Source: a virus (Duplodnaviria > Caudoviricetes). Taken from it: a DNA stretch of 56,305 nt. Shown one piece after another: positions 7,390 through 56,305 of this stretch. Location: positions 1 to 56,305 of IMG/VR virus record IMGVR_UViG_3300016469_000460. One strand, 5' to 3'. The position numbers were made by a program, and so were the translations under genes. Each line of letters starts with the position of its first letter. Within the stretch, counting starts at the first letter, position 1. The notes under the pieces are model-generated. The model saw only the letters and a list, made by a program, of their open reading frames with translations, searched no databases and was not told where the DNA came from.

Positions 7390-7494
7390 CATTATGGAGC
7401 TACAGGTAAAAAAGTATATGGAAGCGAAATGGAAGTTATATCTAAACAATGGCCTTTTTGCTCAAAAAGCATCTTGAAAAACACTTGAAAAAAG

Positions 7495-7773
7495 TTACTT
7501 CACAGTAATGGTATCAGTAGTATCTTGTGCGATAGGATAGGCTTTTTTGCTCTTGCTACCTCTATCGCCAAAGGTTACATGGCGCACCTTCTTTTCATTT
7601 GGTTGCCCTGCAAAATTTGTAGCTGACTTGATACTTGGTACATACTTACCAAGATTTCCATAAGCCATTTCATAGCGTATTGCTGCGCTTGATACCCAGC
7701 AAAATAGCATAATGACTAATGCTGTGTTTCTAACTCTTTTCATCGCCTTCATTTGTTTGTTTGTCCTTTCCAT
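7495..7773 (-). CDS. Hypothetical protein with N-terminal TM/signal segment
   Basis: KRVRNTALVIMLFCWVSSAA; last gene of the virion operon. Confidence 0.55.
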   Translation of the reverse strand: MERTNKQMKAMKRVRNTALVIMLFCWVSSAAIRYEMAYGNLGKYVPSIKSATNFAGQPNEKKVRHVTFGDRGSKSKKAYPIAQDTTDTITVK

Positions 7774-8041
7774 TTCTCAAAATTCTTATGATTTCCTTAG
7801 AATTTTTATCAGCTTCAAATGCGTGCATAGACACCATTAAAAGCTTTTCTTTCAATTCCTTTATCTCTACGTTTTGAGCTTTGACCTCCTTGCTTAACAT
7901 GGCCGTTTCAAGTCTGCTTTCTGCCATATCAGCCGAAAAAGACTTTTGTTGCATCCAAGACATAATCAATTGCATCATAGTTGCTACAAATGCCGCTACG
8001 ATAGTTGCTATTGTCGATGCCCAAAATAAGAACTCTGCCAT
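7730..8041 (-). CDS. Small membrane-anchored coiled-coil protein (holin-like or accessory)
   Basis: N-terminal TM helix followed by a heptad-rich region. Confidence 0.6.
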   Translation of the reverse strand: MAEFLFWASTIATIVAAFVATMMQLIMSWMQQKSFSADMAESRLETAMLSKEVKAQNVEIKELKEKLLMVSMHAFEADKNSKEIIRILRNGKDKQTNEGDEKS

Positions 8042-9731: not shown

Positions 9732-9738
9732 AAAATTC

Positions 9739-16291: not shown

Positions 16292-16465
16292 TTAGAAGCT
16301 AATTTTTGAATTTTTAGGCTCGGTTTTTTCACCGCTCAATTTTTCGTTAATGGCTTTGGCCTTTTTCAACTTTTCAGCTTTTTCGATTTCGAGCAAAAGC
16401 TCTTTTTCGATATGGTCATTGCCTTCGTTTTGGCCGCCTTGAATGTTTTTGTTTTTACCTTCCAT
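16292..16465 (-). CDS. Small lysine/glutamate-rich protein (57 aa), absent from the ORF track
   Basis: MEGKNKNIQGGQNEGNDHIEKELLLEIEKAEKLKKAKAINEKLSGEKTEPKNSKISF*; ends 5 nt before the gpD-like start. Confidence 0.55.
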   Translation of the reverse strand: MEGKNKNIQGGQNEGNDHIEKELLLEIEKAEKLKKAKAINEKLSGEKTEPKNSKISF

Positions 16466-16559
16466 GTTACAGTTTTGTTACAAAAATGTTACAGTTAATA
16501 TATTGATATTCAGTTAATTACAATGTGCTTTGTTACAAAAATGTTACAGTTTTGTTACA
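16465..16559. repeat. Helically phased TGTTACA direct repeats (2 x 3 copies)
   Basis: Exact TGTTACA at 16465, 16476, 16487, 16531, 16542 and 16553; all offsets are multiples of 11; AT-rich spacer between the triplets. Confidence 0.9.
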
Positions 16560-16560
16560 C

Positions 16561-34670: not shown

Positions 34671-34690
34671 AATCTAAGTTTTTACATTTT

Positions 34691-36055
34691 TTAAATAACA
34701 CCAATGGTAGAATTGTATTCCCTTCTACGCATCCAATTGGCGATAGCAAACGAATCCGCACCGTCAGGACTACGGCCATGCTCTTTCTTTATTTTTTCCT
34801 TGGATAAAATTTGCAATGTTTTTCCGCTTTCCAAAGTAAATTTTATCCAACCTAGTTGCCTTTTCAAATCATTCAACTTTTCAATGCCTTGACGTTCCCC
34901 ATCAGTGATGAAAGTACACTTATCAATTTCCCCTACGTAACCTGCTGCAATGTCATTTTTCAAGGCCATGAACATTTGCGCTCGCAGGTTCAAAGGTTGT
35001 AAAAATTTGAACTCATTTGAGTAGATATTAACCTCCGGTTTTTCACCCGAACTGATAGGTTCTACAATAATACCCTTATCATGTAGATAATCCACTACAC
35101 CAGCTCCAAGACCTACCACATCAACACCTACCTTCCAATGCTGAATCTTGTAGTCATTGATAAGCATAATAGTTCTATTAACAATTTCCGGTATAGATGT
35201 TTTGGACCATTCCTCTACATGAATCGGACGACCCCCTTCTAGGATAAAAAAGGAGGTTTTGTCATCTCCATACCTTGCAGGGTCAACACCCATTGAAATC
35301 ATTTTATTGTTCGCCTCTTTTTCAATTGCATTGCCTAAGAAATCCATCAACTCATTAGTGATAAGCTGATTCGGTGCGCTCGAAAATATCCAAGCACCTT
35401 CCAAATACCTTGCTAATAGGTCAGGATTGTACTTATAGGCATCTTTGAGCATCTTGACATACTCGCTGTCTTCTGCATAATTATCCGTTGTCAGGGATTG
35501 GATAAAGACATGGTTCTTATCCTTTGTTTCTATGAAGTAAGGAATAAGCCAACAGTTTTCAGGATTGGTCGTCAAGCGGATTCTATAAGGCGGCGTTTGA
35601 CCATTCGGTAATACCCAACGAAGGCGCGTTTTCAAGATGTTGAATACCTGTTCATCTACTTCGTTCGCTTCATCAATGCCTGCCCAACCGATTTCAAGAC
35701 CTTTTATTTTATTCAATAGCGGGTCTTTCGACTTGTTGGCCTCCATGAATATGAGGGTAGAACCATTGATGAACGTTACCGTACTGCTTTGTTGATTGTA
35801 GGTACGGATAATTTCAGGCGGACAAATCTTGAAAAAGGTAATCAGAATTGTTTTTCGGATGGTGGTCAGCTCCTTTCGTACAATGACAAGGCGGTTCCCG
35901 TCGTACTTCATGGCATTCAAAATAGCCTCCGCACATAAAAACCAACTCTTGCCACCACCCATAGCACCACCGAACAGCAAAAACGGCGCTGTATTTCGAT
36001 GTGCCGTTCGCTGCTTTCCCTTGGGGGCGTAATAGTCTGCAAAAGATATTTTCAT
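34691..36055 (-). CDS. terL: Terminase large subunit
   Basis: Walker A FGGAMGGGKS, Walker B GIDEANE, motif III LTTNP, nuclease MGVDPARYGDDK and SPDGADS. Confidence 0.96.
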   Translation of the reverse strand: MKISFADYYAPKGKQRTAHRNTAPFLLFGGAMGGGKSWFLCAEAILNAMKYDGNRLVIVRKELTTIRKTILITFFKICPPEIIRTYNQQSSTVTFINGSTLIFMEANKSKDPLLNKIKGLEIGWAGIDEANEVDEQVFNILKTRLRWVLPNGQTPPYRIRLTTNPENCWLIPYFIETKDKNHVFIQSLTTDNYAEDSEYVKMLKDAYKYNPDLLARYLEGAWIFSSAPNQLITNELMDFLGNAIEKEANNKMISMGVDPARYGDDKTSFFILEGGRPIHVEEWSKTSIPEIVNRTIMLINDYKIQHWKVGVDVVGLGAGVVDYLHDKGIIVEPISSGEKPEVNIYSNEFKFLQPLNLRAQMFMALKNDIAAGYVGEIDKCTFITDGERQGIEKLNDLKRQLGWIKFTLESGKTLQILSKEKIKKEHGRSPDGADSFAIANWMRRREYNSTIGVI

Positions 36056-36058
36056 AGC

Positions 36059-36469
36059 TTATTCTGAATCGTCACTTTCTTGATTATCGTCATTGCTTTC
36101 CTCGTCCCCCATATCAATACCCGAAACGAATTTTATTTTCAAATCCCTATCGTTTTTATCCGCTATGAATTTTTCATATATGTTGTTGAAGGTATAAAGT
36201 GAGCCTTGCGAAACATCTCGCATCATGGCACGGGCAAGCATCACAACAATGACAGGGGCATTAGTTTCCTCTGTAATTTTTTTCAATTCTTCTTTGGTTT
36301 GGCACAACAACCAATTCGATATGTCGCGCAAATCTTCCTTGGTAAGCTTACCTTTGATTTCCTCTTGCGTTCGCCACTTCATTACTTCTTGCCAAGTGCC
36401 TATTTTTTTAGGTGGCTTTCCTACATTTTCAGCTTCGGCATTGGCTTTATTACCTTTTTTAAAAGCCAT
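36059..36469 (-). CDS. Putative terminase small subunit
   Basis: Immediately upstream of TerL; N-terminal FKKGN...GKPPK motif. Confidence 0.7.
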   Translation of the reverse strand: MAFKKGNKANAEAENVGKPPKKIGTWQEVMKWRTQEEIKGKLTKEDLRDISNWLLCQTKEELKKITEETNAPVIVVMLARAMMRDVSQGSLYTFNNIYEKFIADKNDRDLKIKFVSGIDMGDEESNDDNQESDDSE

Positions 36470-43734: not shown

Positions 43735-44197
43735 TGGAGGCGGTGACGGGCCAGCTAATGTATCGGGTGACAGCTTGGATAAAGGCACTCTTTTACCCGT
43801 CAAGGTAGGTTCTGAAATTTGGTATGCTATGCCTTTCAGTCGTTTGGCAAAAATTAGCAATGACATAGCCTCCTTGGATAGCTTGCGACAGGTATCTTTG
43901 TTAGTGCCACTACTCGATAGCTCGCTTTCAACTTGCAAGCAGGTCAATAGTCTGCAAAAGCAGGAAATCAATTCTTTTGAAGCTTTAATGAAAAGCTATG
44001 ATATTGAAGTCGGAAAGCAGGATTCAATTATTATGAACCAAGCCTATACGATTGAAAAGTCCGATGCTGTTATCAAGGAGCTTGACGGAAAGTATCAAAA
44101 AGAAAGGCGAAAAAACAAGGGTAAAAATATTTTGATAATTTGCGGCACCGCTATTGGCCTCCTGCTTGGGATATTGATAGCGGCGGCGATAAAATAA
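43649..44197 (+). CDS. Putative spanin partner (signal peptide, coiled coil, C-terminal TM)
   Basis: Overlaps the previous gene; signal peptide ending FS|Q; heptad region; C-terminal hydrophobic helix. Confidence 0.55.
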   Translation: MRFGKTSSHILLILLIALFSPLTGFSQNNGGGDGPANVSGDSLDKGTLLPVKVGSEIWYAMPFSRLAKISNDIASLDSLRQVSLLVPLLDSSLSTCKQVNSLQKQEINSFEALMKSYDIEVGKQDSIIMNQAYTIEKSDAVIKELDGKYQKERRKNKGKNILIICGTAIGLLLGILIAAAIK

Positions 44198-44206
44198 CAA
44201 GCTGTC

Positions 44207-44710
44207 ATGTTGAAGAAAAAAACATACAAAATTGACGTTCCCGAAGTCTTGATAACTCAGGATGTTGTTTTTGCCATTGGGTACGAATCCTTGGATATGT
44301 TCGACCTCGCTCCCGATATTGAAAAAACAACGGGCATTTCCAAGCAATCCGCTTTGGATTACAAAGAAACACCTTCGGATGCTAGGGTTTATGGAATGTG
44401 CAATATTATGAATGTCAAGGATGGGGCTTGTGACATCTTCTTTTTCATCAATGCCACAAGACTAATCAATGACATTGGGGAATACGGCCTACAAAAAGGA
44501 GGCGGCAACATTATTGCACATGAAGCATTCCACCTTACTCAATTGATGCTAATGCGTAACCAATTGGGCTTGAATTGGTGGAAAAAGGATTGGCCGGGGA
44601 TTGGTGGCAGCATGGAAGACAATATCGACGGTGAAGTTTTTGCGAGCGTACAGGGAAGTGTTGGGGCGCAAATGGCTGCTTTTGCTTCGGAGCTTTTGTT
44701 AATGGGTTAG
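44207..44710 (+). CDS. HExxH metallopeptidase-like protein
   Basis: IIAHEAFH motif with a downstream E (DGEVFA). Confidence 0.6.
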   Translation: MLKKKTYKIDVPEVLITQDVVFAIGYESLDMFDLAPDIEKTTGISKQSALDYKETPSDARVYGMCNIMNVKDGACDIFFFINATRLINDIGEYGLQKGGGNIIAHEAFHLTQLMLMRNQLGLNWWKKDWPGIGGSMEDNIDGEVFASVQGSVGAQMAAFASELLLMG

Positions 44711-44738
44711 AATTTTTGTTTTGTATTTTCAGATTGGG

Positions 44739-44768
44739 GCATCTACCTTCAGGTAGGTGCTTTTTTTT
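44739..44768 (+). terminator. Rho-independent terminator (lysis operon)
   Basis: GCATCTACCT-tc-AGGTAGGTGC followed by T8. Confidence 0.85.
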
Positions 44769-44772
44769 ATGC

Positions 44773-44805
44773 AAAAAAGGCAACCCCTCGAAAGAGATTG
44801 CCTTT
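44773..44805 (-). terminator. Rho-independent terminator (convergent minus-strand operon)
   Basis: AAAGGCAA-cc-CTC-gaaa-GAG-a-TTGCCTTT preceded by an A tract on the plus strand. Confidence 0.75.
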
Positions 44806-44848
44806 ACTAGATACACGTCAACTTGATAAGAACGAAGATAAGAAAAAG

Positions 44849-45031
44849 TCAATCTTTTTCCAACAAATCTTCAAAATTATTTGCAATCATAGTGTAAAGT
44901 TCGATTAATTCGATAGCATTTTTTCGCTCTATTTTAGAAAGCTTTTCAAGGCTATTTTCAGATAATTCCTCGGCACAATCTTGTAAGTTTTGCAATGTAT
45001 TTGTGAACATACAATATTTCATGTTTGCCAT
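44849..45031 (-). CDS. Small hypothetical protein
   Basis: MANMKYCMFTNTLQNLQDC, resembling a conserved small phage protein (MxNMSYCRFENT-like). Confidence 0.65.
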   Translation of the reverse strand: MANMKYCMFTNTLQNLQDCAEELSENSLEKLSKIERKNAIELIELYTMIANNFEDLLEKD

Positions 45032-45051
45032 ATTCTTAGTGTTTTGATGTT

Positions 45052-45519
45052 TTATAGGTAGTCTTTAACTTCTCTAATCAAGTCAAAAAGATGCTTTTTT
45101 TCATCGTTATTGAGAGAAGTAGTTTTTAGAAATTCTTTTATTTTGAAATACGGGTCTTGCATTAGCTTCATTTTATCTTCTGAAAATTCGATATTAGAAC
45201 GAATCCAAAAATCACCAATGCAAGCTTTTTCATAGCCACATTCATATACGTTATAGAAAATTTCAGGCGGCGCATACATCTCTTTTTCTTTGAAAGTATT
45301 AGAAGACAAGTAAACTTCTTTTTGTTTTATTTGGTATCTATTGCCTTTCAAGTCTTCAAATTCATTTTCAGAAATATATTTAAAATATCGCCAAAACCCA
45401 CAATCGAAAACACCATAATAATTACCAATAGTAAATTTTATGTCATGCTGTTGTAGTTGAAATATGTCAATTATATTTCCCGTATCATTTAAACTCAGGT
45501 GTTTTAGCACTTTCGACAT
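45052..45519 (-). CDS. Hypothetical protein
   Basis: 155-aa AT-rich ORF. Confidence 0.65.
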   Translation of the reverse strand: MSKVLKHLSLNDTGNIIDIFQLQQHDIKFTIGNYYGVFDCGFWRYFKYISENEFEDLKGNRYQIKQKEVYLSSNTFKEKEMYAPPEIFYNVYECGYEKACIGDFWIRSNIEFSEDKMKLMQDPYFKIKEFLKTTSLNNDEKKHLFDLIREVKDYL

Positions 45520-45543
45520 TTTTTTTAGGCTTATGATAAATTT

Positions 45544-45831
45544 TTATAACCAAGAGAAGTCAAATTCGGAAACATCATCTTTCGATGGCTCGAATGGACG
45601 GCGGTCTGAAAATTCACCATCCAATACAGCATTATCTACAATGCTTCGATGGTTGGACGGGATGCCGTTGCCGCTCCAATAATGAACGGTGCCGTCTTCC
45701 TCAATTAGGAATTTATAGGCGCTATCGCCTACTTGTAATGTGGCAATTTCAGCAGGCGTAATCGTATAGCTATTGCCTGTTTTTGAATTGGTAACGGTGT
45801 ATTTTCCGTTGTTGTGGTTTGATACTTGCAT
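45544..45831 (-). CDS. Hypothetical protein
   Basis: 95-aa ORF downstream of a consensus promoter, A-rich leader. Confidence 0.7.
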   Translation of the reverse strand: MQVSNHNNGKYTVTNSKTGNSYTITPAEIATLQVGDSAYKFLIEEDGTVHYWSGNGIPSNHRSIVDNAVLDGEFSDRRPFEPSKDDVSEFDFSWL

Positions 45832-45941
45832 GGTGGTAATGTTGTTTTGTTTTTTGAAAAGCGGCGACCCCTGTTTTAGGACGAAAGATTGAAAGGATTA
45901 CACCGGAGCCGCCGCCGTATCTTTATCGCTGTTTGATGTAT

Positions 45942-45972
45942 CAAAGATAGGTACTTTTTACAAACTTTCAAA
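45942..45972 (-). promoter_or_regulatory. Bacteroidota consensus sigmaA promoter (-33/-7)
   Basis: Minus strand TTTG-N19-TATCTTTG, an exact match to TTTG-N19-21-TAnnTTTG. Confidence 0.8.
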
Positions 45973-46026
45973 GTTTTTTACAATTATTTTCAAAATAATT
46001 TAAAATTTAACACTTTTGTAAAAAAC

Positions 46027-46056
46027 AAAAACCCTACCGAATAAATCCGATAGGGC
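46027..46056 (-). terminator. Rho-independent terminator ending the groEL/csf operon
   Basis: Minus strand GCCCTATCGG-attta-TTCGGTAGGGT followed by a T tract. Confidence 0.7.
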
Positions 46057-46085
46057 TAGGTAGCTGGTAGTTGACAGCTTAAAAA

Positions 46086-46286
46086 TTATTTATTATCAAT
46101 AATTTCGATAATGTTAATTTTTTTGTTGGTTTCTATTTCGTCTTTTGAAACGTACAGATAATCACATCCGCTAAAATTATAAAGACTTGCATCTTCATTG
46201 GCACCATTCAGCATTATCTTGAATGTAATGACTAGTTCACTTTTTGCATGAACTTTTGTTTTGTGAATTTTGCTACTACCAATCAT
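46086..46286 (-). CDS. Small hypothetical protein
   Basis: 66-aa ORF before the terminator. Confidence 0.45.
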   Translation of the reverse strand: MIGSSKIHKTKVHAKSELVITFKIMLNGANEDASLYNFSGCDYLYVSKDEIETNKKINIIEIIDNK

Positions 46287-46334
46287 TTTAAAGAAAACAA
46301 CTTTGTTGATTCCTAGCTTATCCCATAATGATAG

Positions 46335-47195
46335 CTATTGATGCGAACTTTGTTCTTCCTTTGCAGGCTCTAAGGCTTGTTCTTGCTCCATAGCAAGCCC
46401 ATTGTCCTGTGGCATTCCAAAAACGGGAAATTCGGGCATTGTAATGATTTTATAATCACTTTCGTGGGTAATTTCAAAGTAATTCAAGAAGATATTATAG
46501 ACTACCTCAGAATTGACGGGCTTGATGGTGAACCAAACGAATCTGAATACTTTATTATCCAAAACTTTCAATTCAAATTTGGTATTTTCGGGAACATAAA
46601 AATCCAAAATTCCCTCTTTTTCCATCAGTTCAAAAGCGCATTTTAGAGCCGATAAAGTACTATCAATAGAGTTTTTCAATCTAAGTACACCAGAAATAAC
46701 TTTCAAAACTCCCTCAATAACCGAAGCTTCCTTAATCAAATTTGGAAGGTCTGTAAGGGGTCTTGACCTATCTTTATTCATAAGATTTTCCAATTCAGGA
46801 TTAGCCATTGATTTTATGACTTCGATAGTTCTTTCTATTCCAAATGTTAAAGTAAGCTCCTCGGAAACTTGAATAGGCAAATACATCACCTTTTCAGCTT
46901 TCACATCAATATTGATTTTGTCGCTTTGTCCATAGATGCAAATAGGCAGCTTGACCTCGATTTTATCATTTTTGAAAACAGCAATGTATTTTCCGTTTTC
47001 GATAGTGATTTTCGGGTCATCTGGATTGCCAGCCTCGAAAGCTTTCAATTCATCATTTCGCACGCTAAGAACTTTCGGGTCAGTTCTGAGCCTTTGAAAT
47101 TCATTTATGTGAATGAATAGCTTTTCATCTTGAATGAAAGCGCTACGGCCTATTTTTTTGACATTAACGTCAATTTCTAATTTGTAATTTTCCAT
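46335..47195 (-). CDS. Hypothetical protein
   Basis: 286-aa ORF starting 4 nt after the csf3 stop. Confidence 0.75.
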   Translation of the reverse strand: MENYKLEIDVNVKKIGRSAFIQDEKLFIHINEFQRLRTDPKVLSVRNDELKAFEAGNPDDPKITIENGKYIAVFKNDKIEVKLPICIYGQSDKINIDVKAEKVMYLPIQVSEELTLTFGIERTIEVIKSMANPELENLMNKDRSRPLTDLPNLIKEASVIEGVLKVISGVLRLKNSIDSTLSALKCAFELMEKEGILDFYVPENTKFELKVLDNKVFRFVWFTIKPVNSEVVYNIFLNYFEITHESDYKIITMPEFPVFGMPQDNGLAMEQEQALEPAKEEQSSHQ

Positions 47196-47199
47196 TGAA

Positions 47200-47889
47200 T
47201 TATGAATTTTGAATTAAAAAATCTGTGTAATTTTTATCACTCGAAGGCACTACACAAGGCACAGCGCCTATTTGTTGATGATAAGGGGGCATAGTTCGCA
47301 TTACGAAGATGCTACCTGTCTTTTTCTTTTGAGCGGCAAACTCTAATGGAGCAGGTCGCTTCAAGGTGTCCCAAAAATTGCCATTACAAGCACTTATTTT
47401 GACATCTCTTATCCAACCATATCCCTTTGATACTTTCTTTCCAATGCCGACAATATCTTGTAGGATTTCGGCTACCTTATCAGCATCGCCACAGAACCAA
47501 GCAACGGCACCGGAACACACAAAGCCTGTTCTTGGAATATTGGCACTTTTCATAGTGCCTCGCTGCGTATCTATGCCCGTGCGCTCCTTATCGGATATTA
47601 CCCAATGTGACTGTTCGTTCCAACGCTTCTTTTCCGAAGTAATGAAAGATTGCACATTGCCTGTTAAAAATATTTGAGAGGCAAGGAAACAACCTGCTTC
47701 GGCATCAAATTCTATCGGAAAGTCTTTGGCAGTAGAAAAGTCGAAAAGTTCATCAGGGGCATACATCGGCTTATTGAAAAAACTTTCAGGATGGTATTTT
47801 TGTAGCCAAAATTTTGCAATTAGTCCGTCAAGCATCAGGGGCTTATATTGCAAAACGGTGTGTTGGATAGTGAATTCAATCTTGTGCAT
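47200..47889 (-). CDS. csf3: Type IV CRISPR-associated Csf3 (Cas5-like RAMP)
   Basis: PLMLDGLIA N-terminal motif, IDTQRGTMKS, WFCGDADKVAEIL, G-rich loop GIGKKVSKGYGWI, RPAP and PPY. Confidence 0.85.
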   Translation of the reverse strand: MHKIEFTIQHTVLQYKPLMLDGLIAKFWLQKYHPESFFNKPMYAPDELFDFSTAKDFPIEFDAEAGCFLASQIFLTGNVQSFITSEKKRWNEQSHWVISDKERTGIDTQRGTMKSANIPRTGFVCSGAVAWFCGDADKVAEILQDIVGIGKKVSKGYGWIRDVKISACNGNFWDTLKRPAPLEFAAQKKKTGSIFVMRTMPPYHQQIGAVPCVVPSSDKNYTDFLIQNS

Positions 47890-47907
47890 GGTGGATATGT
47901 TGTTTTG

Positions 47908-48717
47908 TCAAATGTATTGTTTCAGCTTTGGCATAATAGCGGCAAGCCTATCGAATATTTCAGGGTAGTAGTATTTCAAGAAAACCGCTTGTCCTTGATT
48001 CGTTCTTGCCGATGGTAGAATCCAAGACTTTCGGATTTGTTCAGGGCTATCTACGAATGCTGTTTTGAAATATACATCAAAGATAGGGATATTTCTCGAA
48101 AAAAGATAGGCAAAGACATCGCTTGCACTCCAATCGGCTAAGGGTTGGCATACAAATTCATTATCTCGCTTGCAATAATACCAATATCCGTTTTTTAAAA
48201 AGTTCATTCGCCTTGCCTTGCTTTCCTCAGCTCGAAGACCTAGTAAGACAGCACCGACATTGTTAGCCTGCTTATAGTCCCGAATAAGATTGTAAAAAAA
48301 ATCATTGGCGAACTTGATGCCTCGGCTGTGGATGTCGTCGGAAAAGTCAATTTCTTTGATATACTCCCAAGGGTCTTTCTCGGGTGAAAGTATGTCCACT
48401 TGATAGCGGAACATTTCACTTATCGTTTTGATGTATTCTAGTTCTCCGGGGAAATCCATCGTATCTTTTTCCGTCACAGCTCGAATCGGTAGCCGATTAT
48501 CATAAAAAATACTTGCTATGAGGTGCAGCATGGCCGTACTATCTTTTCCACCGCTCCACATGGCCCTACATTGAGTTACAATATTCGGAACCGCTTCATC
48601 AATTGCGTGAAAGAAATCATAGACCACCGTTTGCGCTTTTTCCACCTTTTTTTTGAAGGCAGAAGTATTGGCACGAAGCATATACATTTCGTGCCAATAT
48701 TCTATCGGTTTTTCCAT
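47908..48717 (-). CDS. cysH: PAPS-reductase-family (CysH-like) PP-loop protein associated with type IV-B
   Basis: PP-loop WSGGKDSTAM, LGLRAEESKAR, PLADWSASDVFAY; adjacent to csf3. Confidence 0.88.
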   Translation of the reverse strand: MEKPIEYWHEMYMLRANTSAFKKKVEKAQTVVYDFFHAIDEAVPNIVTQCRAMWSGGKDSTAMLHLIASIFYDNRLPIRAVTEKDTMDFPGELEYIKTISEMFRYQVDILSPEKDPWEYIKEIDFSDDIHSRGIKFANDFFYNLIRDYKQANNVGAVLLGLRAEESKARRMNFLKNGYWYYCKRDNEFVCQPLADWSASDVFAYLFSRNIPIFDVYFKTAFVDSPEQIRKSWILPSARTNQGQAVFLKYYYPEIFDRLAAIMPKLKQYI

Positions 48718-48720
48718 TGG

Positions 48721-49347
48721 CTATTTTTGATTATTCCAATCGCTTTCGAGCTTTTTCCCAATTTCGTTATCATTGAAATGCAAAACAACTTTTTGAGGAT
48801 TTTTAGCGGCTTGCTTTCTCTTGATTTCCGCTTCGATAGCTGCGAAAATTGCGGCTGCGGTGTCAATGAGTTCATTCATATAACCATCTTCATCATTTTC
48901 TAAGACGGCCTTTGCAATTTCCCCACATTCCTCACCGATAATCAATGCCCACTTTTCTTTGCTGTGATTATCTTGACATCCGAACTTTTTCATTTGGGCA
49001 TATCGCTTACGGATAATGCCGTTAATGATTTTGTAGTTGATTGCAGCGAAATCGGTTCTTTCATCTTCAAATAGGCCGTTATTAAAGATTTCAGCAAATT
49101 TAGTGACCTTGAATCCTTCTTGCAGATTCATCCATTGCCCCTGTCCTTCGTTTTCATTGACTTGATATTCCAAAACGTCAATAGCACGCGGTTTATATGT
49201 GCCTTTTTCGGTAGAAGTAGAAGCGAGAATGCAGATGTAAAAACCTGTTCTTTCAGGCTTGTAGCTTTGGGCATTGAGCCAAAGTCCGAACATAATTCCA
49301 CTTTCGGAATCCATGTATTTCTTACTGTCTAATGATAGTTCTTTCAT
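48721..49347 (-). CDS. Protein with MazG-like NTP pyrophosphohydrolase domain
   Basis: KFGCQDNH..WALIIGEECGEIAKAVL...ELIDTAAA, the ExxE...ExxD pattern. Confidence 0.75.
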   Translation of the reverse strand: MKELSLDSKKYMDSESGIMFGLWLNAQSYKPERTGFYICILASTSTEKGTYKPRAIDVLEYQVNENEGQGQWMNLQEGFKVTKFAEIFNNGLFEDERTDFAAINYKIINGIIRKRYAQMKKFGCQDNHSKEKWALIIGEECGEIAKAVLENDEDGYMNELIDTAAAIFAAIEAEIKRKQAAKNPQKVVLHFNDNEIGKKLESDWNNQK

Positions 49348-49359
49348 TGAATAGATTGA

Positions 49360-49779
49360 TTATTTATTGTGCTTGTAAAATTCGGCAAAGTAAAATTTCC
49401 AATTTCTTATTTTACCGTTTTCATCAATGTTCATAATGATATAATCGCCTTCATTATCTCTTTTTGGCGACATGGTGCGAGGCACATACTCATTTTTAAG
49501 TTCGCAAATAACATTATGCTCATCATCAATGACCTTGCAAGAAAAACCGTCACAAACCTTGTAATGAACACTTGCGGTAGTGCCTTGGGGCCAATCCGAA
49601 ATAATACCCGAATCAATATCAATGGATATACTCCAAATATTGGATTTGAGAAACGGCATTAAGTTTCCTTCATAGTCTTCTATGCCGTTCACTTTTGCAT
49701 CTTCTGGGTATCGGACGCGTGCAATCACTTCAAGCGTTTTAAGCTCGATTTCCTTCGGAATATATATTGTTGCCTTCAT
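49360..49779 (-). CDS. Conserved hypothetical phage protein
   Basis: VRYPEDAKVNG...WPQG..ASVHYKVCD...YVP...GDYIIMNIDENGKI..W. Confidence 0.7.
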   Translation of the reverse strand: MKATIYIPKEIELKTLEVIARVRYPEDAKVNGIEDYEGNLMPFLKSNIWSISIDIDSGIISDWPQGTTASVHYKVCDGFSCKVIDDEHNVICELKNEYVPRTMSPKRDNEGDYIIMNIDENGKIRNWKFYFAEFYKHNK

Positions 49780-49810
49780 AGAATTATTGAAAAGGTAAAA
49801 AATGATGTTT

Positions 49811-50500
49811 TCAGTCTATACACTTTTGAAAGTGCAATTTCATTTTTGTGAGGTCAACGCAGCATAGGTGATTGTAGCCCTGCTTATTGAAAACACATCC
49901 GTTGTCAATGTTTAAAACTTGGAAATGTTCAAGCTCCGAAAAGCGTTCCTCTATCTCATGTCTTGTTTGTGGTGTGTGACCATGCACTATGATTCTTTCA
50001 CCCAACCAACTATATTTAACCGAATCCGTCCACTTTCTTATCCAAAGCATGGATTGTTTGTCATCAAATAGGGAGCCTTGGTTGAAGTTCAATCCTGCAT
50101 GCACGAAGATGAACCCTTTCGATTCGACATAATATTCCATTGCATGGCAAAAATCAAGATATGATTGGGGAATATCCTGAATAGAATTTGGAATATTACC
50201 GTCTATTGCAAAACTGTCGAGTGCTTGCCTTCCACCATTGACGTTCCAAAAATAAAGATTTTCATAATTTTCGCCACTTTCCAACATCATTTGTTCATGG
50301 TTGCCGCGTAAGGCTGTCACTTTGTAGCCCGATTCTTTGAGCTTCATAATCCTATCCAAGACCTGTTTACTTGCAGGGCCTCTATCTATGTAGTCACCCA
50401 ATAGGAAAAGTTCATCTTGCTTGCTAAGACCTATTTTGTCGAGCATGGCCGCAAAGGTCTTATCGCAGCCGTGAATGTCGGATATGGCAAAAATTGACAT
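49811..50500 (-). CDS. Metallophosphoesterase (lambda-PP/PphA-like Ser/Thr phosphatase family)
   Basis: SDIHG, LGDYIDRG, LRGNHE, FVHAG, VHGHTP and IDNGC. Confidence 0.93.
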   Translation of the reverse strand: MSIFAISDIHGCDKTFAAMLDKIGLSKQDELFLLGDYIDRGPASKQVLDRIMKLKESGYKVTALRGNHEQMMLESGENYENLYFWNVNGGRQALDSFAIDGNIPNSIQDIPQSYLDFCHAMEYYVESKGFIFVHAGLNFNQGSLFDDKQSMLWIRKWTDSVKYSWLGERIIVHGHTPQTRHEIEERFSELEHFQVLNIDNGCVFNKQGYNHLCCVDLTKMKLHFQKCID

Positions 50501-50502
50501 GG

Positions 50503-50685
50503 TTATTTTTTTTCAATTAACAAGACTATTTTCTTTAGCGAATGAAACACATATAGCAAATTTCCAAACATCAAAATCCAAAATAACACATCGCTTGGAT
50601 TTTTTTGGATGTGCTGAATGGAAACAATACTTGCATATATGCTGAATATCAATAAGAAGATATGCAATATAAGATTTTTTTTCAT
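50503..50685 (-). CDS. Small membrane protein (2 TM)
   Basis: Two hydrophobic helices; tightly packed between csf2 and the phosphatase. Confidence 0.6.
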   Translation of the reverse strand: MKKNLILHIFLLIFSIYASIVSIQHIQKNPSDVLFWILMFGNLLYVFHSLKKIVLLIEKK

Positions 50686-50705
50686 GTGTTTTTTTCAGGA
50701 TTGAG

Positions 50706-51977
50706 CTACGCTTTAAACTTTTTCCCGTTAACCTCTTTTTTAGCAGCAAAGAAGCTTTGAATTTCCGCTTTTCTACTGTCAAGGTAATTCAAGTAATGAC
50801 TTTCATCACAAGAGAAAAATGGCATATCAAAGCCGATTTCCCCATGCGCTACACTAGATTTTCCACCAATGTAACCGTTTTGCTTCAATAGGTTCAGGGT
50901 ATGGTATAGACAAGAAATAAGCAGGGGCATATCTTCAAAGATAGGTTCGATAGCTAATTTCAATTCAAGCTCCGTGCCTGTGACAAAACTTTCAGTCCAA
51001 TATAACATCTGTTGAGGGTTGTCAGACTTTTTGCCCGTGCCTTCGTTTTCTAGTACCTTCATTCGCTTTTCATCTTTCAAAATGTCGCTTCGAGTTCCGA
51101 AAACAAAAGAGGTCAATTCCCAATGTGATATGTCCCCATTTCCAAGCTCTGTGCATCTTGGAACGGCATGGGAAATATTCAAAGCTCCCTCTATCATATC
51201 CGAACCTTTGGCGGTTCCGAACAGCCCTAGCGGTGGACACATATAGACTTCTTGCAGGCGCTTGTCAATCTCAATCTTACCCGTACTATCAGTAAGCGCA
51301 CCGCCCGAAAAGTATTCATAATATTCCTTGACGCTCAGTTTTCCGATAAGCTCCATTCGCTCAAAGAAAAACATCATTGCCAAATCTCGAAGACTATGAC
51401 GGATAGAGTTACCGGAAATAACCGGAATTTGCTCTATGTTTTTTGTAAGCAAAATATTACGCTCCAAGATGTTAATTTCGCCCACCATAGAAACAAATCG
51501 TTTGCAAGTAACATCTTCATCACTTGCGATTGTTTCTTTCAAATTTCGGAATCCTAGGAACAAATATTGTAGTTCGGTTCGGATAAGGTGCAAAAACTCA
51601 AAGTCACTGAATAGAGAAAGCATATTGAATAGCTCATCATTTTGCATTCCTCGAATGCCGAACTTTGCCCCGAACTTTGAAAGAAAGTCCGGTATGTCAG
51701 CAGCGAAAGCGGAAATAGTCAAGGCAGAAAAGAACTCATCATAGATACTGCTTTTTCTTTGTTGCCTTGTTTCGGATGGGATTTCTCGCCACAGCAGATA
51801 TAAAATTTCTATCGCTGCAATTCGAGCGTGCTTTTTTGAGTGGAATTTTGTTGTGATGGTAGTAGGCTCTATCACAAAAGGTTCGCGTCTATGAAGTTTA
51901 ACATTGCCTGTATTTTGATTGTCAGAGCCGCAATGTAGGGCCTGCAATGCCTTGATGTTGATGGTAGTTTTGAACAT
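50706..51977 (-). CDS. csf2: Type IV CRISPR-associated Csf2 (Cas7-like RAMP) with inserted Cas11-like small-subunit domain
   Basis: IKALQALHCG, IPVISGNSIRHSLRD, FSGGAL, PPLGLFG, GTRSD, QQMLY and IGGKSSVAHG; about 140-aa helical insert at aa ~39-180. Confidence 0.88.
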   Translation of the reverse strand: MFKTTINIKALQALHCGSDNQNTGNVKLHRREPFVIEPTTITTKFHSKKHARIAAIEILYLLWREIPSETRQQRKSSIYDEFFSALTISAFAADIPDFLSKFGAKFGIRGMQNDELFNMLSLFSDFEFLHLIRTELQYLFLGFRNLKETIASDEDVTCKRFVSMVGEINILERNILLTKNIEQIPVISGNSIRHSLRDLAMMFFFERMELIGKLSVKEYYEYFSGGALTDSTGKIEIDKRLQEVYMCPPLGLFGTAKGSDMIEGALNISHAVPRCTELGNGDISHWELTSFVFGTRSDILKDEKRMKVLENEGTGKKSDNPQQMLYWTESFVTGTELELKLAIEPIFEDMPLLISCLYHTLNLLKQNGYIGGKSSVAHGEIGFDMPFFSCDESHYLNYLDSRKAEIQSFFAAKKEVNGKKFKA

Positions 51978-51997
51978 TGTTTTGTTATTTTTTCAGA

Positions 51998-52714
51998 TTA
52001 TTGTTTTGTAAGGCCCTTAATGAGTAGGTGAAACCAAAGGTCGTTTCGATAGCCTTGAAGTATGTCATTTCCTGCCATGTAAGCATCCGAACCATAAGCC
52101 TCAATTTTGGCAAAATTAGTGCTTCCTGCCAAAATCTCCTGTTTGGTAAAGTGTGTTAGTTCGGTAGCCATGCCGCGCGTTTTCTCGGTAACGGTGTACC
52201 ACTTTTGAACGATGGGCAGTATCTCCATTGCCTTAGTTCTGTCGAATAGTACGGGGCCAATTTCGGTTTGTACGGAAAAAATGTCGTTGTTATAATTGAC
52301 CTCAGCTTTGAAAGAAGTATGCTTTTGGGCTTTGGAGCTTTGAAGTGAACCAACGCAAAAAACAAAGGGCGTTTCCTTGTCAGCTAGTAGGTGCTTCAAT
52401 AGGTTTTCGCTATTCAGTAGTACCAAGTTTTGTTCACTCGCAAAAAAGCTATATTTTCTAAGCTCTGAAAAACTATCTCCTATCGGTAAGGTAGGCTTGA
52501 TGCACAAGGCAACATCTATGCTGATATAATCGGAATTGAATTTCAAGCTATCCCAATCCGTGAAATTGGAGGATAGTATTTTCTTACTATATCCGCTTTC
52601 GATTTCCTGCCCTGTGAAAGCACAAATTTGAAGGCACTTGAACTGTATGGGTGGATGGTCCAAACCTGATTTATTCAAGTGCCTTGCTATGATGTTACAA
52701 GCGTGCTTTTTCAT
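51998..52714 (-). CDS. csf1: Type IV CRISPR-associated Csf1 (Cas8-like large subunit)
   Basis: CAFTG, SSNFTDWD, LRKYSF, PFVFCV, QKHTSFKAEVN and FTKQEILAG motifs; upstream of csf2. Confidence 0.78.
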   Translation of the reverse strand: MKKHACNIIARHLNKSGLDHPPIQFKCLQICAFTGQEIESGYSKKILSSNFTDWDSLKFNSDYISIDVALCIKPTLPIGDSFSELRKYSFFASEQNLVLLNSENLLKHLLADKETPFVFCVGSLQSSKAQKHTSFKAEVNYNNDIFSVQTEIGPVLFDRTKAMEILPIVQKWYTVTEKTRGMATELTHFTKQEILAGSTNFAKIEAYGSDAYMAGNDILQGYRNDLWFHLLIKGLTKQ

Positions 52715-54302
52715 CTACTTGTTCAAGTGCTACGATACAACCTGTTGTTAGGAAAAGTCCACCGATGGAAGCGGCATTTTGTAGGGCAATACGTGTCACT
52801 TTCACGGGGTCAATAACACGCATTTCAATCATATTGCCATACTTTCCGGTTCTTGCGTTATACCCGAAATTCATTTCAGGGCTTTCCAAGACCTTTTGGA
52901 CAATCAAGGTGCTTTCCTTGCCTGCATTTTCGACAATGCACTTGATAGGTGCTTGGAGGGCATTTTTAACGATGTTAATACCCATTGTTTCATCTGCATT
53001 TTCACCTACCAAATTTTCAAGGGCTTGGATGCAGCGAATCAAAGCGATGCCGCCGCCAGGTACTATACCCTCTTCAATCGCTGCATTAGTAGCGTGAATT
53101 GCGTCATCAATACGGTCTTTCTTTTCTTTGACCTCTGTATCGCTATTACCACCAACGTAGATGATGGACACGCCGCCTGAAATCTTTGCAAGTCTTTCTT
53201 TGTAATATTTTTGCTCCGATTCCGTATTAGCAACTCTGAGTTTGGCGTATAGGCTTTGCATCAAGCCCTTGACACTTTCTTGCGAACCCTGAGCATTGAT
53301 AATTAAAGTCTTGTTCGACTTGATAGAAATAGCCTCACAGCGTCCCAAGTCATCAATTTTGACATCTTCAAGTTTCAGATTCATTTCATCTGAAATGACC
53401 TTTGTTCCGGTCATAATGGCAATATCCTTCAAAGCATCCTCTTTTCTATCGCCAAAATTTGGAGCTTTGACAGCAATCATAGGGCGATTATATTGGACAG
53501 TTTGCAGCAGCATTGTAGCCAATACCGTTTCATGGAAATACTCAGCTACAACAACAATTGGCTTGCCTTTGGCGGCTACTGCTTCCAAGATGGGAACAAT
53601 CATTGAAATGTCAACAATTCGTTTATTTGTTACCAAGATAAGCGGATTATCCAAGTAACATTCGTTCCGGTCAGCACGATTGACAAAGTTTTGAGATGTA
53701 TAGCCCGAATCGAACTCAAAGCCCAACATTTTTTCCAAGCGGTCTTCGGTGGTTTTTGATTCCAAGACTGTGACCATGCCATTGCTTGCCGATTTTCGCA
53801 CCGCCTCGGCTACTAACTTGCCTACATTCACATCGCCATTTGCAGAAATTTCGGCTACTGTGTCGGTGAATGAATTGAACTCCGATTCATTACTAGTGTC
53901 AAATTTGACGGCCATTTCTTGTAAGGCGCTTACTACTGCTTCAACTGCCTTGTCAATGCCGCGTTTCAATCCCATCGGTTGCGCTCCTGCTTGAATGAGC
54001 TTGAAGCCTTCTTGAATGATGGAATAGGCAATTACTGTGGCGGTGGTAGTTCCGTCCCCTGCTAATTCGGCTGTTTTTTTGGCGGCTTGCTTCACGAGCT
54101 GTACCGCGTCATTTTCTACGTTATCAGATAGGAATATTTCATTGGCAACGGAAACACCGTCTTTAGTAATGACGGGAGGGCCATATTTTTTAGATAGAAT
54201 GACAGGCTTGCCAGCAGGCCCTAGCGTGCTTGAAACTGCATCGTATAGTTTTTTGATGCCTGCAAGCATCTTTTTTTGAGGGTTTTTGATAACTTTTTTC
54301 AT
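52695..54302 (-). CDS. groEL: Chaperonin GroEL
   Basis: STLGPAG, ITKDGVSVA, AGDGTTTATV, FDSGY, IEEGIVPGGG and IDPVKVTRIALQNAAS. Confidence 0.97.
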   Translation of the reverse strand: MKKVIKNPQKKMLAGIKKLYDAVSSTLGPAGKPVILSKKYGPPVITKDGVSVANEIFLSDNVENDAVQLVKQAAKKTAELAGDGTTTATVIAYSIIQEGFKLIQAGAQPMGLKRGIDKAVEAVVSALQEMAVKFDTSNESEFNSFTDTVAEISANGDVNVGKLVAEAVRKSASNGMVTVLESKTTEDRLEKMLGFEFDSGYTSQNFVNRADRNECYLDNPLILVTNKRIVDISMIVPILEAVAAKGKPIVVVAEYFHETVLATMLLQTVQYNRPMIAVKAPNFGDRKEDALKDIAIMTGTKVISDEMNLKLEDVKIDDLGRCEAISIKSNKTLIINAQGSQESVKGLMQSLYAKLRVANTESEQKYYKERLAKISGGVSIIYVGGNSDTEVKEKKDRIDDAIHATNAAIEEGIVPGGGIALIRCIQALENLVGENADETMGINIVKNALQAPIKCIVENAGKESTLIVQKVLESPEMNFGYNARTGKYGNMIEMRVIDPVKVTRIALQNAASIGGLFLTTGCIVALEQVDEKARL

Positions 54303-54474
54303 CGCTGTTTTTATTTTTAACTTTAAAACAAGTAAGCCCGAAAGACAATCACCTTATCACCGTTAAGAAACGTTATGCAATCTTACAGCACACACTAAGC
54401 TTACATGAAAATAGCTAGCATGAACCTATATTTTTCTTCTTGCCGCTCATTTTCGTTTCTTTTTGGTCGTGTCG

Positions 54475-54547
54475 AGCCGAAAATAGGAATCGAACCTACA
54501 ACCCCCTAATTACAAATTAGGCGCTCTGCCAATTGAGCTATTTCGGC
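54475..54547 (-). tRNA. tRNA-Thr(UGU)
   Basis: GCCGAAA acceptor stem, TAGCTCAATTGGCAGAGC D arm, CCTAA-TT-TGT-AA-TTAGG anticodon arm, GTAGG-TTCGATT-CCTAT T arm; CCA not encoded. Confidence 0.95.
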
Positions 54548-54583
54548 GTGAATGATGTATGAAGATGTAAAAAATGTTGTTAC

Positions 54584-54619
54584 AAAAAAAGCGACACGGC
54601 TTTCAAGAACCGCGCCGCT
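54584..54619 (-). terminator. Rho-independent terminator-like hairpin upstream of the tRNA
   Basis: Minus strand AGCGGCGCGGTT...AGCCGTGTCGCT followed by T6. Confidence 0.65.
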
Positions 54620-55193
54620 CAAATTATAGATGTCCGGCCATTGCATAAGGGCAAAGCTTTGAATCGTACCGCATTGGTGCGCACCTAGTGCGTATAAGAT
54701 TCTGACTTTGGATTTTACCATTTCGGGCATTCACTCTTTTTTGATGGGAACTTTCACCCATCCCCCTCGCTATCCTCTTGAATGTTGTCGAACCAAAAAA
54801 AACGAAGGCTTTGGCTTACCCTACCGACCTTAGAACGCATCTTGTTTTCAAGCTGCTACGGCCTTCGTTTTTACAAAAATTATTCAAATGATAAAAATGG
54901 ACTTGGCAGATACTGCCTATATATGATAAAGTGCTTCGTTTCAAAATATGGGCAACTATCTCCCGACTGCTGCCCACCCAAAATTTACCCTAAAAAACCT
55001 AAAATTATTAACAATTGTACACTATATGAACTCCGTCTTAGAGTTATACAAATCTATAGCTTTTAGTCGAAATTTTCAACAAAATTCAAATTTTTCACGC
55101 CAAAAATTCAAATTTTCGTTAAAATGTAGTTGATTTTTTGCATAATTTTTGACTTGAAACTGAATAAACTATATTTTTACAAAAATAATATCT

Positions 55194-55487
55194 ATGGATA
55201 TAAAAGCTTATCTCGAAAAATTAGACGAAATGCAAAGGACTTGCTTCCTTCGAGATTTCGGATTATTTGCAATTTTCCCCAATGAAAAAATTATCAAAAC
55301 CACCTACGATTCAAATACAGGCTTTGCCTTCTATGCAATGGATAGTAGCATAGGTTTTGATTTTACCGGAAATCTATTCATCACAACCCACCACATTAGC
55401 CCTATGGTAAGCCTTAGAAAGATAGCAGAATTTCTAAGTGGTAGAAACATCGTTTGGGCCATTGAGGAAACACAAGCCAGCTCATAA
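55194..55487 (+). CDS. Hypothetical protein
   Basis: 97-aa ORF with AT-rich leader; first gene of a divergent operon. Confidence 0.65.
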   Translation: MDIKAYLEKLDEMQRTCFLRDFGLFAIFPNEKIIKTTYDSNTGFAFYAMDSSIGFDFTGNLFITTHHISPMVSLRKIAEFLSGRNIVWAIEETQASS

Positions 55488-56050
55488 TGCAAAAACAAAA
55501 GCTTTCCAAGAAAGAGCGCCGCAAGGCACAGAAGTGGCAAAAAATGGCACCGATTGTAAAAACCTACATTGATGCTGATAGGAAGATTGGGGACGCTATG
55601 AAGCTATATAGCAGCTTGCAATCAGCTTGGAAAAGTCGAAAAATATTAGACCTTTTCGATAACAAGTATGTCGAACCCGATGCAGGTTATCCCATCGGAG
55701 GGGATATTAAAGTACATTCGGGCTTTGCCTTTTATGTATTCGACAATTGCAGTAGCATTGTATCGAAAATTTTCAAGCAATCGGAGGCTGTTGGGCTATT
55801 GCCAAAGTCGGACGGATTGATTGACTTTCAAAACCAATTCCCGATTAACGAAAGAACGATGTCCCCTGTGGCTTATATCCATGATATGAAAGACCTCGGT
55901 GGACTTGTATGTCTTCACACGGTTATTGTCAAGGTGGATGGAAAATACAAGATGCTCAATATTTTTTATAACCCTGACCAAGTCAATAGGCTGCCCAAGG
56001 TCATTGAATTTTTGGTCAATAATCTACTTTTGAATGCAACAATATCATGA
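55487..56050 (+). CDS. Hypothetical protein
   Basis: TAATG coupling to the previous ORF. Confidence 0.7.
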
Positions 56051-56305
56051 CCTACTTTCACACATCTTAAAAAATGGTGTGAAAAAGCAAGACCGAACCG
56101 GCACGGGAACAATTAGTGTTTTTGGCTATCAAATGCGCTTTGACCTTTCCAAAGGTTTTCCCCTGCTTACTACAAAGAAATTGCACCTGAAAAGCATAAT
56201 ATTTGAATTAATTTGGTTTTTACGAGGCGATACAAATGTGAAATATCTCAATGACAATGGTGTGACTATATGGAACGAATGGCAACGAGAGAACGGCGAT
56301 TTGGG
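56034..56305 (+). CDS. thyA: Thymidylate synthase (5' partial, runs off the window)
   Basis: Manual translation [68 protein letters not shown]...IWNEW...GDLG. Confidence 0.95.

Follow-up and report, generated by a model that had tools for sequence, protein, structure and literature searches.

A probable array-less type IV-B-like CRISPR-Cas effector module in a tailed-phage genome, with a Cas11-like domain inside Csf2

Type IV-B is, to our knowledge, the least understood CRISPR-Cas subtype: we know of no established guide RNA or target for it, nor of a role for the CysH-like enzyme to which it is invariably linked. A virus record in IMG/VR, IMGVR_UViG_3300016469_000460, raises the question of what such a system looks like, and what it may do, in a phage. 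In this record, four minus-strand genes resembling csf1, csf2, cysH, and csf3 are located between positions 47,200 and 52,714. The window analyzed here is the entire 56,305-bp record, which consists of one contig. A preliminary description of this DNA had proposed a phage-borne, array-less type IV-B-like effector module. Based on the comparisons reported below, we consider it probable that the window carries a divergent, array-less type IV-B-like effector module of a tailed phage, and that the lineage of this module is mostly viral and has Cas11 inserted in Csf2.

Each of the three csf genes is recognized by its own type IV family, at scores far below the curated NCBIfam cut-offs. The csf1-like gene (51998..52714, minus strand), which encodes a putative large subunit of 238 amino acids (aa), matches TIGR03114 (E 2.6e-5; 24 bits vs. 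a cut-off of 140). The csf2 gene (50706..51977, minus strand), which encodes the Cas7 backbone subunit of 423 aa, matches TIGR03115 (E 7.6e-6; 25.4 bits vs. 130). The csf3 gene (47200..47889, minus strand) encodes a Cas5-like protein of 229 aa that matches TIGR03116 (E 2.6e-18; 66.5 bits vs. 140), and this match spans residues 3–206 and profile positions 4–214 of 223, which is nearly full length. These genes are accompanied by a gene that encodes a CysH-like PP-loop protein of 269 aa (47908..48717, minus strand; PF01507, E 8.8e-17). The occurrence of three type IV families side by side, together with a CysH-like gene, goes far beyond what would be expected by chance.

The relatives of these proteins point in the same direction. 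The four genes also occur together in several divergent elements, including L011 (a 56-kb IMG/VR contig), L002/L003 (a pair of almost identical metagenome contigs with an overlap in one open reading frame, ORF), and C70 (a 107,784-bp contig with the locus L004), and the module proteins of these elements are 25–49% identical to those of the window. For Csf1, TIGR03114 is the sole family matched by 18 of the 19 aligned relatives (best E 4.6e-13), and the window homolog is 33–37% identical to those of L004, L003, and L011. Within the Csf1 clade of the window, C31 is the sole invariant cysteine. The CxxC...CxxC pairs of a more distant L003 Csf1 (L003 2152–2541) are absent at the aligned positions, which may mean that this clade has lost a metal-binding site. 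For Csf3, four of the seven relatives found carry the JGI label "CRISPR type IV-associated protein Csf3", and the window homolog is 28–31% identical to those of L003, L011, and L004. The CysH-like protein is 49, 40, and 25% identical to its homologs in L011, L003, and L004, respectively. It has an SGGKDS motif at residue 55 and cysteines only at residues 50, 182, and 190, and the C-terminal catalytic cysteine motif [ED]CG[LIV]H, which was sought in this protein, is absent. Cas-associated CysH (CasCysH) is described as having the PP-motif SGGxDS/T and no catalytic cysteine (PMC8175902), and the motifs of the putative CasCysH of the window fit this description.

For Csf2, the assignment extends to the fold. 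The best sequence match of this protein in the PDB is the Csf2 of 7jhy (E 1.7e-4), and it also matches phrog_22746 (E 2.8e-22). In VIA structure comparisons, the full-length AlphaFold2 (AF2) model (predicted local distance difference test score, pLDDT, 62) matched the type IV Csf2 chains 8rc2_A (Z 14.9), 8rc3_A (Z 13.6), and 7jhy_e (Z 13.0), and the remaining matches are the type III proteins Csm3 and Cmr4 and other Cas7 proteins. Among the Foldseek matches listed, every one at E ≤ 0.001 is a type IV Csf2 or a type III Csm3. The Foldseek comparison suggested in the preliminary description thus returned, for 50706..51977, the fold of type IV Csf2 and type III Cas7. The phage-borne type IV-B-like module of csf1, csf2, csf3, and a cysH-like gene that it had proposed is borne out by sequence and, for Csf2, also by fold.

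The Csf2 of the window has 423 aa, compared with 300 aa in the solved type IV-B Csf2, and similarity between the two begins only at about residue 180. In the full-length model, a helical domain occupies residues 48–152, and the linkers that flank it show little order, with pLDDT < 50 over residues 14–40 and 153–185. Over the 63 long Csf2 forms aligned in this study, these linkers have median lengths of 28 and 36 residues, as measured over the wider spans of residues 20–48 and 152–185. The insert is positioned between the beta1/"catalytic loop" region and the conserved helix alpha1 of Csf2. When residues 40–153 (51519..51860, minus strand) were folded alone, using 41 aligned rows of which the other 40 are unaltered full-length relatives, the predicted domain reached a pLDDT of 96.1 and a predicted template modeling (TM) score of 0.89. 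Among 48,161 PDB chains compared with this domain by VIA, only one reached Z ≥ 8. This chain is 7jhy_h, deposited as "Csf4 (Cas11)", which aligned with 107 of 114 residues at Z 11.3, a root-mean-square deviation of 2.5 Å, and 20% identity, whereas the runner-up had Z 5.3. Foldseek ranked 7jhy_g first (probability 0.98, TM-score 0.63, E 0.31), and the second-ranked match had a probability of 0.08. These model-based comparisons suggest that the match to the 7jhy Cas11 is specific and argue against a generic helical-bundle match. From the predicted structures, we conclude that Cas11 is embedded in Csf2 as a domain; the support is structural, with no significant sequence link. In the loop before the insert, D19 is Asp in 46 of the 63 long forms and may be the counterpart of the putative catalytic Asp42 of the 7JHY Csf2.

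Canonical type IV-B loci carry a separate small subunit, Cas11 (PMC7937560, PMC8175902), and a stand-alone cas11 gene between csf1 and csf2 is typical. In the window, csf1 and csf2 are separated by a gap of 20 nt with no ORF inside, and none of the ORFs interposed elsewhere in the module looks like an all-helical small subunit. Furthermore, when the window, C70, L002, and L011 were translated in six frames and scanned with a hidden Markov model (HMM) of the insert, csf2 was the only gene matched. The gene order csf1-cas11-csf2-csf3-cysH given in the preliminary description thus holds for the presence of csf1, csf2, csf3, and cysH but not for a cas11 gene, the corresponding domain being located in Csf2, nor for contiguity, as csf1-csf2 and cysH-csf3 are separated by four unrelated ORFs.

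Two loci illustrate the canonical arrangement. The type IV-B system of Mycobacterium sp. JS623 (7JHY, PMC7937560) resembles that of the window in having Csf1, Csf2, Csf3, the Cas11 fold, and a cysH-like gene and, as far as the record goes, in lacking an array, cas6, dinG, and adaptation genes. In the window, however, the Cas11 domain is inside Csf2, the genes are split by four ORFs, the Csf1 clade lacks the cysteine pairs, and the module is carried by a tailed phage, whereas the Mycobacterium system is on an actinobacterial megaplasmid. The 7JHY complex contains six Csf2 and five Cas11 subunits, with each Cas11 on a Csf2-Csf2 interface (PMC7937560). The second locus belongs to Skermania phage SPI1 (KR011061), an isolated actinophage that was the only match of a tblastn search of a phage collection with the Csf2 of the window. 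It is a contiguous canonical type IV-B locus (L001 4777–8410, corresponding to record positions 32609–36242). In this locus, orf40 (245 aa) is a Csf1 candidate, orf41 encodes a 137-aa Cas11 that matches 7jhy_h at E 4.9e-7, orf42 encodes a short Csf2 (339 aa; E 3.2e-22), orf43 encodes Csf3 (E 7.3e-14), and orf44 encodes a protein similar to phosphoadenosine phosphosulfate (PAPS) reductases and CysH. All five are annotated merely as hypothetical proteins. SPI1 therefore has a short Csf2 and a separate Cas11 in one contiguous operon, whereas the window has a long Csf2, no separate cas11 that could be found, and split genes.

Several points weigh against our reading of the module. The scores of Csf1, Csf2, and Csf3 place these proteins on a distant branch rather than among the equivalogs of the three families, and the fold comparison covers Csf2 alone, with Csf1 and Csf3 being identified by sequence. 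For the insert, no Foldseek match in the PDB reaches E 0.001. The profile of long Csf2 forms does not match the 7jhy Cas11 chain at E ≤ 10, and the hhalign comparison between the insert profile and the SPI1 Cas11 was not significant (E 0.041, probability 1.3%); the SPI1 Cas11 was the best-scoring among the seven SPI1 ORFs compared in this way. Because the full-length model is mediocre, it does not predict where the Cas11 domain lies with respect to the Csf2 core. In addition, the separate Cas11 of the canonical SPI1 locus likewise escapes the insert HMM, such that a very divergent separate cas11 could exist. Finally, the absence of an array and of cas6 holds for the 56-kb record only; because this record is incomplete, either could lie in the missing part.

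Some of these points would also be expected if the insert were an unrelated, lineage-specific decoration of Csf2, such as an elaborated finger or thumb, that plays no small-subunit role, with the true Cas11 being absent or located elsewhere. The lack of significant sequence similarity between the insert and Cas11 fits this explanation. Helical domains can converge, VIA Z scores below approximately 13 may be non-specific for helical bundles, and type IV-A complexes function without Cas11 (PMC7937560). We nevertheless regard such a decoration as improbable, given that 107 of 114 residues are aligned at 2.5 Å, that the score exceeds those of all other chains by 6 Z units, and that the chain matched is the Cas11 of exactly the expected subtype. 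The VIA list also includes, at Z 3.7–4.6, the chains 8fcj_J, 8g9s_H, and 3wa8_B, which we take to be further small subunits. Moreover, no separate cas11 was seen at the loci with a long csf2, whereas SPI1, with a short csf2, has one.

The embedded domain is not a peculiarity of this phage. A search of 1.84 billion representative sequences with a Csf2 profile yielded 941 matches at E ≤ 1e-3, and the best 150 of these 941 fall into two length classes. Proteins of the long class (approximately 64; 380–506 aa) are aligned over their whole length, whereas those of the short class (approximately 81; 255–340 aa) are aligned only to profile positions 175–410 or so. The insert columns hold at least 80 residues in all of the 63 aligned long forms. 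Among 155 Csf2 family members, 66 are positive with the insert HMM, and 79 of the 81 short forms lack the domain. The matches of the long forms follow by construction because the HMM was built from them, and the two exceptions among the short forms may miss their N-terminus because they are aligned only from about profile position 95. A FastTree phylogeny was inferred from the Cas7 core only, using 148 of the 155 rows (50%-identity representatives), after seven had been dropped for a core span under 180 positions. In this tree, which is unrooted and has FastTree support only, one branch (Shimodaira-Hasegawa-like support 95) splits 69 rows from 79 insert-free rows. Within the 69-row side, 64 have the insert and five do not, and four of these five are entries of 184–334 aa. 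As far as sequence phylogeny goes, this pattern is compatible with a single origin of the insert. The nearest clusters in the ESM Atlas have representatives of 408 aa (161 members, 79% viral) and 469 aa (117 members, 90% viral) and are mostly from Uroviricota; the embedded-Cas11 layout seems typical of a phage group.

Comparisons with other CRISPR-Cas types help to place this lineage. The window has Csf1, a Csf2 with a RAMP fold, Csf3 (by sequence), Cas11 (as a domain), and a cysH-like gene, which together correspond to type IV-B. The features of type IV-A, namely a DinG/Csf4 helicase, Cas6/Csf5, and a CRISPR array, were not found in the record. At the level of Csf2, the profile of the 63 long forms matches the type IV-C Cas7c (PDB 11fs; PMC13676074) as strongly as the type IV-B Csf2 of 7jhy (E 1.3e-18 and 5.9e-18, respectively), and type IV-C also uses Cas11 (PMC7937560). 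However, type IV-C has a Cas10-like HD large subunit instead of Csf1 and no cysH association (PMC8175902), whereas the window has a large subunit that matches Csf1, together with a CysH-like gene. In addition, no Cas10 or HD family was found at E ≤ 1 (Pfam, NCBIfam) among the nine ORFs of the block that were scanned.

A covalent link between Cas7 and Cas11 has a precedent in the type III-E effector Cas7-11 (gRAMP), in which Cas11 is joined to Cas7 such that the stoichiometry is fixed. Chains of Cas7-11 (7wah, 7y80, and 8d9g) are among the VIA fold matches of the Csf2 model (Z 9.0–9.4). Cas7-11 combines four Cas7 domains in one polypeptide, with Cas11 between Cas7 units, and self-processes its CRISPR RNA (crRNA). 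By comparison, the 423-aa protein of the window has one Cas7 core with one Cas11-like domain inside the Cas7 fold, and Csf1 and Csf3 are separate.

Virus-borne type IV-B systems have been reported from prophages, "several lytic phages", and the archaeal Fuxiviridae (PMC10848311, PMC7038947). As in the window, Fuxiviridae (PMC10848311) and SPI1 have a viral set of csf1, csf2, csf3, and cysH-like genes, with CysH adjacent to Csf3. The Fuxivirus type IV-B locus has a mini-array (PMC10848311), whereas none was found in the window. Variants of type IV described previously include a csf1-csf3 fusion, csf1 loss, RecD, and DinG-HNH (PMC8175902, PMC10910872, PMC12669027). A type IV Csf2 with embedded or fused Cas11 was not found in the literature searched, as far as its available sections go, and it could be listed in the supplementary tables of loci that accompany PMC7038947 and PMC12669027. 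The one-protein Cas7-Cas11 architecture in a phage-dominated clade is apparently undescribed.

The core genes of the window are interrupted by four minus-strand ORFs. A hydrophobic 60-aa ORF (50503..50685) has no Pfam or NCBIfam match and no BLASTP match in L003, L004, L011, or L012. It is followed by a gene for a NinI/ApaH-like metallophosphoesterase of 229 aa (49811..50500; PF00149, E 2.2e-18; phrog_246, E 5.1e-50) and by a 139-aa ORF (49360..49779) with no Pfam, NCBIfam, or PHROG family at E ≤ 0.01. The fourth ORF (208 aa; 48721..49347) has a weak MazG/PRA-PH-like C-terminal stretch (PF01503, E 0.0027; PF03819, E 0.059; both under the cut-offs) and matches phrog_2831 (E 1.3e-13). The latter three have no counterpart in the related modules by BLASTP. 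Since the interposed ORFs are not shared with these modules, we read them as variable cargo rather than core components. Downstream of csf3, after a 4-nt gap, a 286-aa ORF (46335..47195, minus strand) has no Pfam, NCBIfam, or PHROG family and no BLASTP match in the related loci; its Atlas model is poor (pLDDT 0.42), and a search with this model gave no usable match.

Gene order and interposed genes also vary among the relatives. The order in L011 is csf1, long csf2, cysH, seven ORFs, and csf3, and that in L002/L003 is long csf2, an N6/N4 methyltransferase gene, cysH, csf3, and csf1. C70 has csf1, long csf2, three ORFs, cysH, a GNAT gene, a second PAPS-reductase-like gene, a 227-aa ORF, and csf3. 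Its genes for a large terminase, a tape measure protein, and three methyltransferases show that C70, too, is a phage contig. Between cysH and csf3, L011 (9603–11326), L004 (15649–17555), and L012 (6242–7294) carry a second and longer gene of the PAPS-reductase/DndC-like type (350–408 aa). In L011 and C70, it is followed by a conserved partner of 197–227 aa, and the window has neither gene. The L002 element encodes a protein with an ART-PolyVal ADP-ribosyltransferase domain (7451–7924) and a ParB-N6/N4 methyltransferase fusion (8395–9759), which are typical anti-restriction cargo of phages and conjugative elements. A 139-aa ORF after the csf1-like gene of L012 is not called Cas11 here because it has no PDB sequence match. 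No close relatives of the module were found among viral contigs (queries: the Csf2 of the window, alignment A1, and P0019) or, with alignment A1, among metagenome contigs and genome contigs. Searches of the phage collection by tblastn with Csf3 and with P0184 gave no match.

The carrier of the module is, on the strength of its protein families, a tailed phage with a contractile tail (myophage). PHROG matches were found for the tail sheath (phrog_23, E 7.3e-32), baseplate wedge (E 1.9e-39), tape measure (E 1.2e-39), major head protein (E 5.3e-13), portal (E 1.3e-53), and large terminase (E 6.3e-40). In the phage collection of 50,697 records, the major head protein reaches only about 27% identity, and it was not found in the metagenome-assembled genome with which C70 was binned. 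The preliminary description of four co-oriented ORFs for Csf1, Csf2, Csf3, and a CysH-like protein in a myophage is accurate, with all four on the minus strand at the positions it gave.

These genes are part of a co-oriented minus-strand block framed by two terminator-like hairpins (54620–54589 and 46057–46030), with no strong internal one on the same strand. The hairpin at 54589..54620, which lies upstream of a tRNA-Thr(TGT) gene (54474–54547, minus strand) and a GroEL gene (52695–54302, minus strand; phrog_5725, E 4.8e-143), is likely the upstream limit of the transcription unit, as predicted from sequence. The end of the GroEL gene overlaps csf1 by 20 nt. At the other end, a 66-aa ORF (46086–46286, minus strand) is followed by the hairpin at 46030..46057 (minus strand; 12 pairs and a T run), which closes the block. 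A 24-nt stretch over the start codon of csf3 (47885–47908) is 92% identical to that of an unrelated 95-aa ORF (45544–45831; stretch at 45827–45850), and this common stretch may be a translation-initiation or regulatory element.

Does the module encode its own guides? In the record, Cas1 (PF01867), Csf4/DinG (TIGR03117), and Cas6_C (PF01881) had no matches, whereas control genomes were positive; Cas2 was not searched. No CRISPR-like repeats were found in the window by TRF, by a repeat search of 44000–56305, or by k-mer spacing scans, and a k-mer spacing scan of C70 revealed no CRISPR-like repeat runs. The claim in the preliminary description that the 56 kb lack cas1, cas2, cas6, dinG, and an array therefore stands for all of these except cas2, which lay outside the search, and the term "array-less" applies to the 56-kb record rather than to the whole genome. 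A cluster of TGTTACA heptamers at 16464–16560 was rejected as a mini-array because it does not consist of repeat-spacer units. It is intergenic, in the tail-gene region, with the heptamers forming two direct repeats of 19–23 nt, and its sequence suggests a regulatory or operator site.

The module could also be a conventional, guide-encoding type IV system whose array, and perhaps cas6, is located in the missing part of the phage genome. The record is classified as linear by IMG/VR, its CheckV completeness estimate is 83%, and its 3' end truncates an open ORF (56034–56303), which we take to be the start of a thymidylate synthase gene. In addition, a Csf1 that is 92% identical to that of the window occurs on a 103,696-bp contig, such that the full phage genome may be far larger than 56 kb. 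One archaeal virus type IV-B locus does have a mini-array (PMC10848311). Nonetheless, this explanation appears distinctly improbable in view of the lack of CRISPR-like repeat runs in both the window and C70 and of Cas6_C and Cas1 in the window, and because an array is absent from 97.8% of type IV-B operons (PMC7937560). Even less plausible, to the point of being very improbable, is a decaying remnant that was split by inserted genes and no longer forms one unit, its CysH-like gene being an ordinary phage PAPS-reductase gene: the four unrelated ORFs inside the module, the cysteine pairs lost in the Csf1 clade, and the frequency of PAPS-reductase families among phages, with phrog_2302 and phrog_424 classed as auxiliary metabolic genes, would fit such a remnant, but all four ORFs are intact and of full length, the four genes occur together in at least four other divergent elements (25–49% identity, with conserved motifs), the 64 long-Csf2 rows in a tree of 50%-identity representatives imply long-term selection, and the block is bracketed by terminator-like sites without a strong one inside it on the same strand.

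The Bacteroidota host that the preliminary description had held probable for this phage is only weakly indicated. One distant relative, C70, was binned with a metagenome-assembled genome of Bacteroidia. The Bacteroidetes -7 promoter motif TAnnTTTG is not enriched in the window (70 matches vs. 65.7 ± 7.8 expected), and the GroEL of the window is about 45% identical to Bacteroides phage GroELs and equally to bacterial GroL.

If the probable type IV-B-like module functions as its homologs suggest, Csf2 protomers would polymerize on RNA in the manner of the 7JHY complex, type IV-B effectors being expected to form ribonucleoprotein filaments on RNAs of about 55–60 nt. Each protomer would place its own Cas11 domain through the two long flexible linkers, forming a "belly" filament at a fixed 1:1 ratio, and the filament would be capped by Csf3 (Cas5) and Csf1 (large subunit). 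With its PP-loop retained but without the catalytic cysteine of true PAPS reductases, the CysH-like protein is more plausibly an accessory enzyme than one for sulfate reduction; following PMC8175902, it may be an ATP alpha-hydrolase or an adenylyl-transferring enzyme, and it may act on something presented by the complex. Given that neither an array nor Cas6 was found, the bound RNA could be a crRNA of the host or an RNA unrelated to CRISPR. The role in the phage would most likely be counter-defence or competition between mobile elements, exerted by RNA-guided binding or by sequestering RNA. Sequestration of crRNAs or small RNAs, anti-defence, and CysH chemistry, which the preliminary description put forward, are hypotheses already in print (PMC7038947, PMC8175902). 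A more specific scenario, which we put forward as doubtful, is that the Cas7-Cas11 lineage forms an array-independent filament that coats host or rival RNAs (crRNAs, small RNAs) and presents them to CasCysH for adenylylation or other modification. The module would then serve the phage in counter-defence or host takeover and not as an immune system, and the genes wedged into the modules (phosphatase, MazG-like, methyltransferase, and second PAPS-reductase-like) would be exchangeable effector cargo.

Taken together, these findings point to a largely viral lineage of long Csf2 proteins with hundreds of metagenomic members, in which the small subunit appears to be fused into the backbone. Standard Cas profiles at curated cut-offs miss this branch. 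The fusion suggests that the Cas7:Cas11 pairing has been selected strongly enough to be hard-wired in one protein, and with a one-protein Cas7-Cas11, reconstitution and structural studies would become simpler, requiring three proteins. Furthermore, the lineage places this subtype in lytic-type tailed phages, where a function in counter-defence or inter-element competition would be directly testable.

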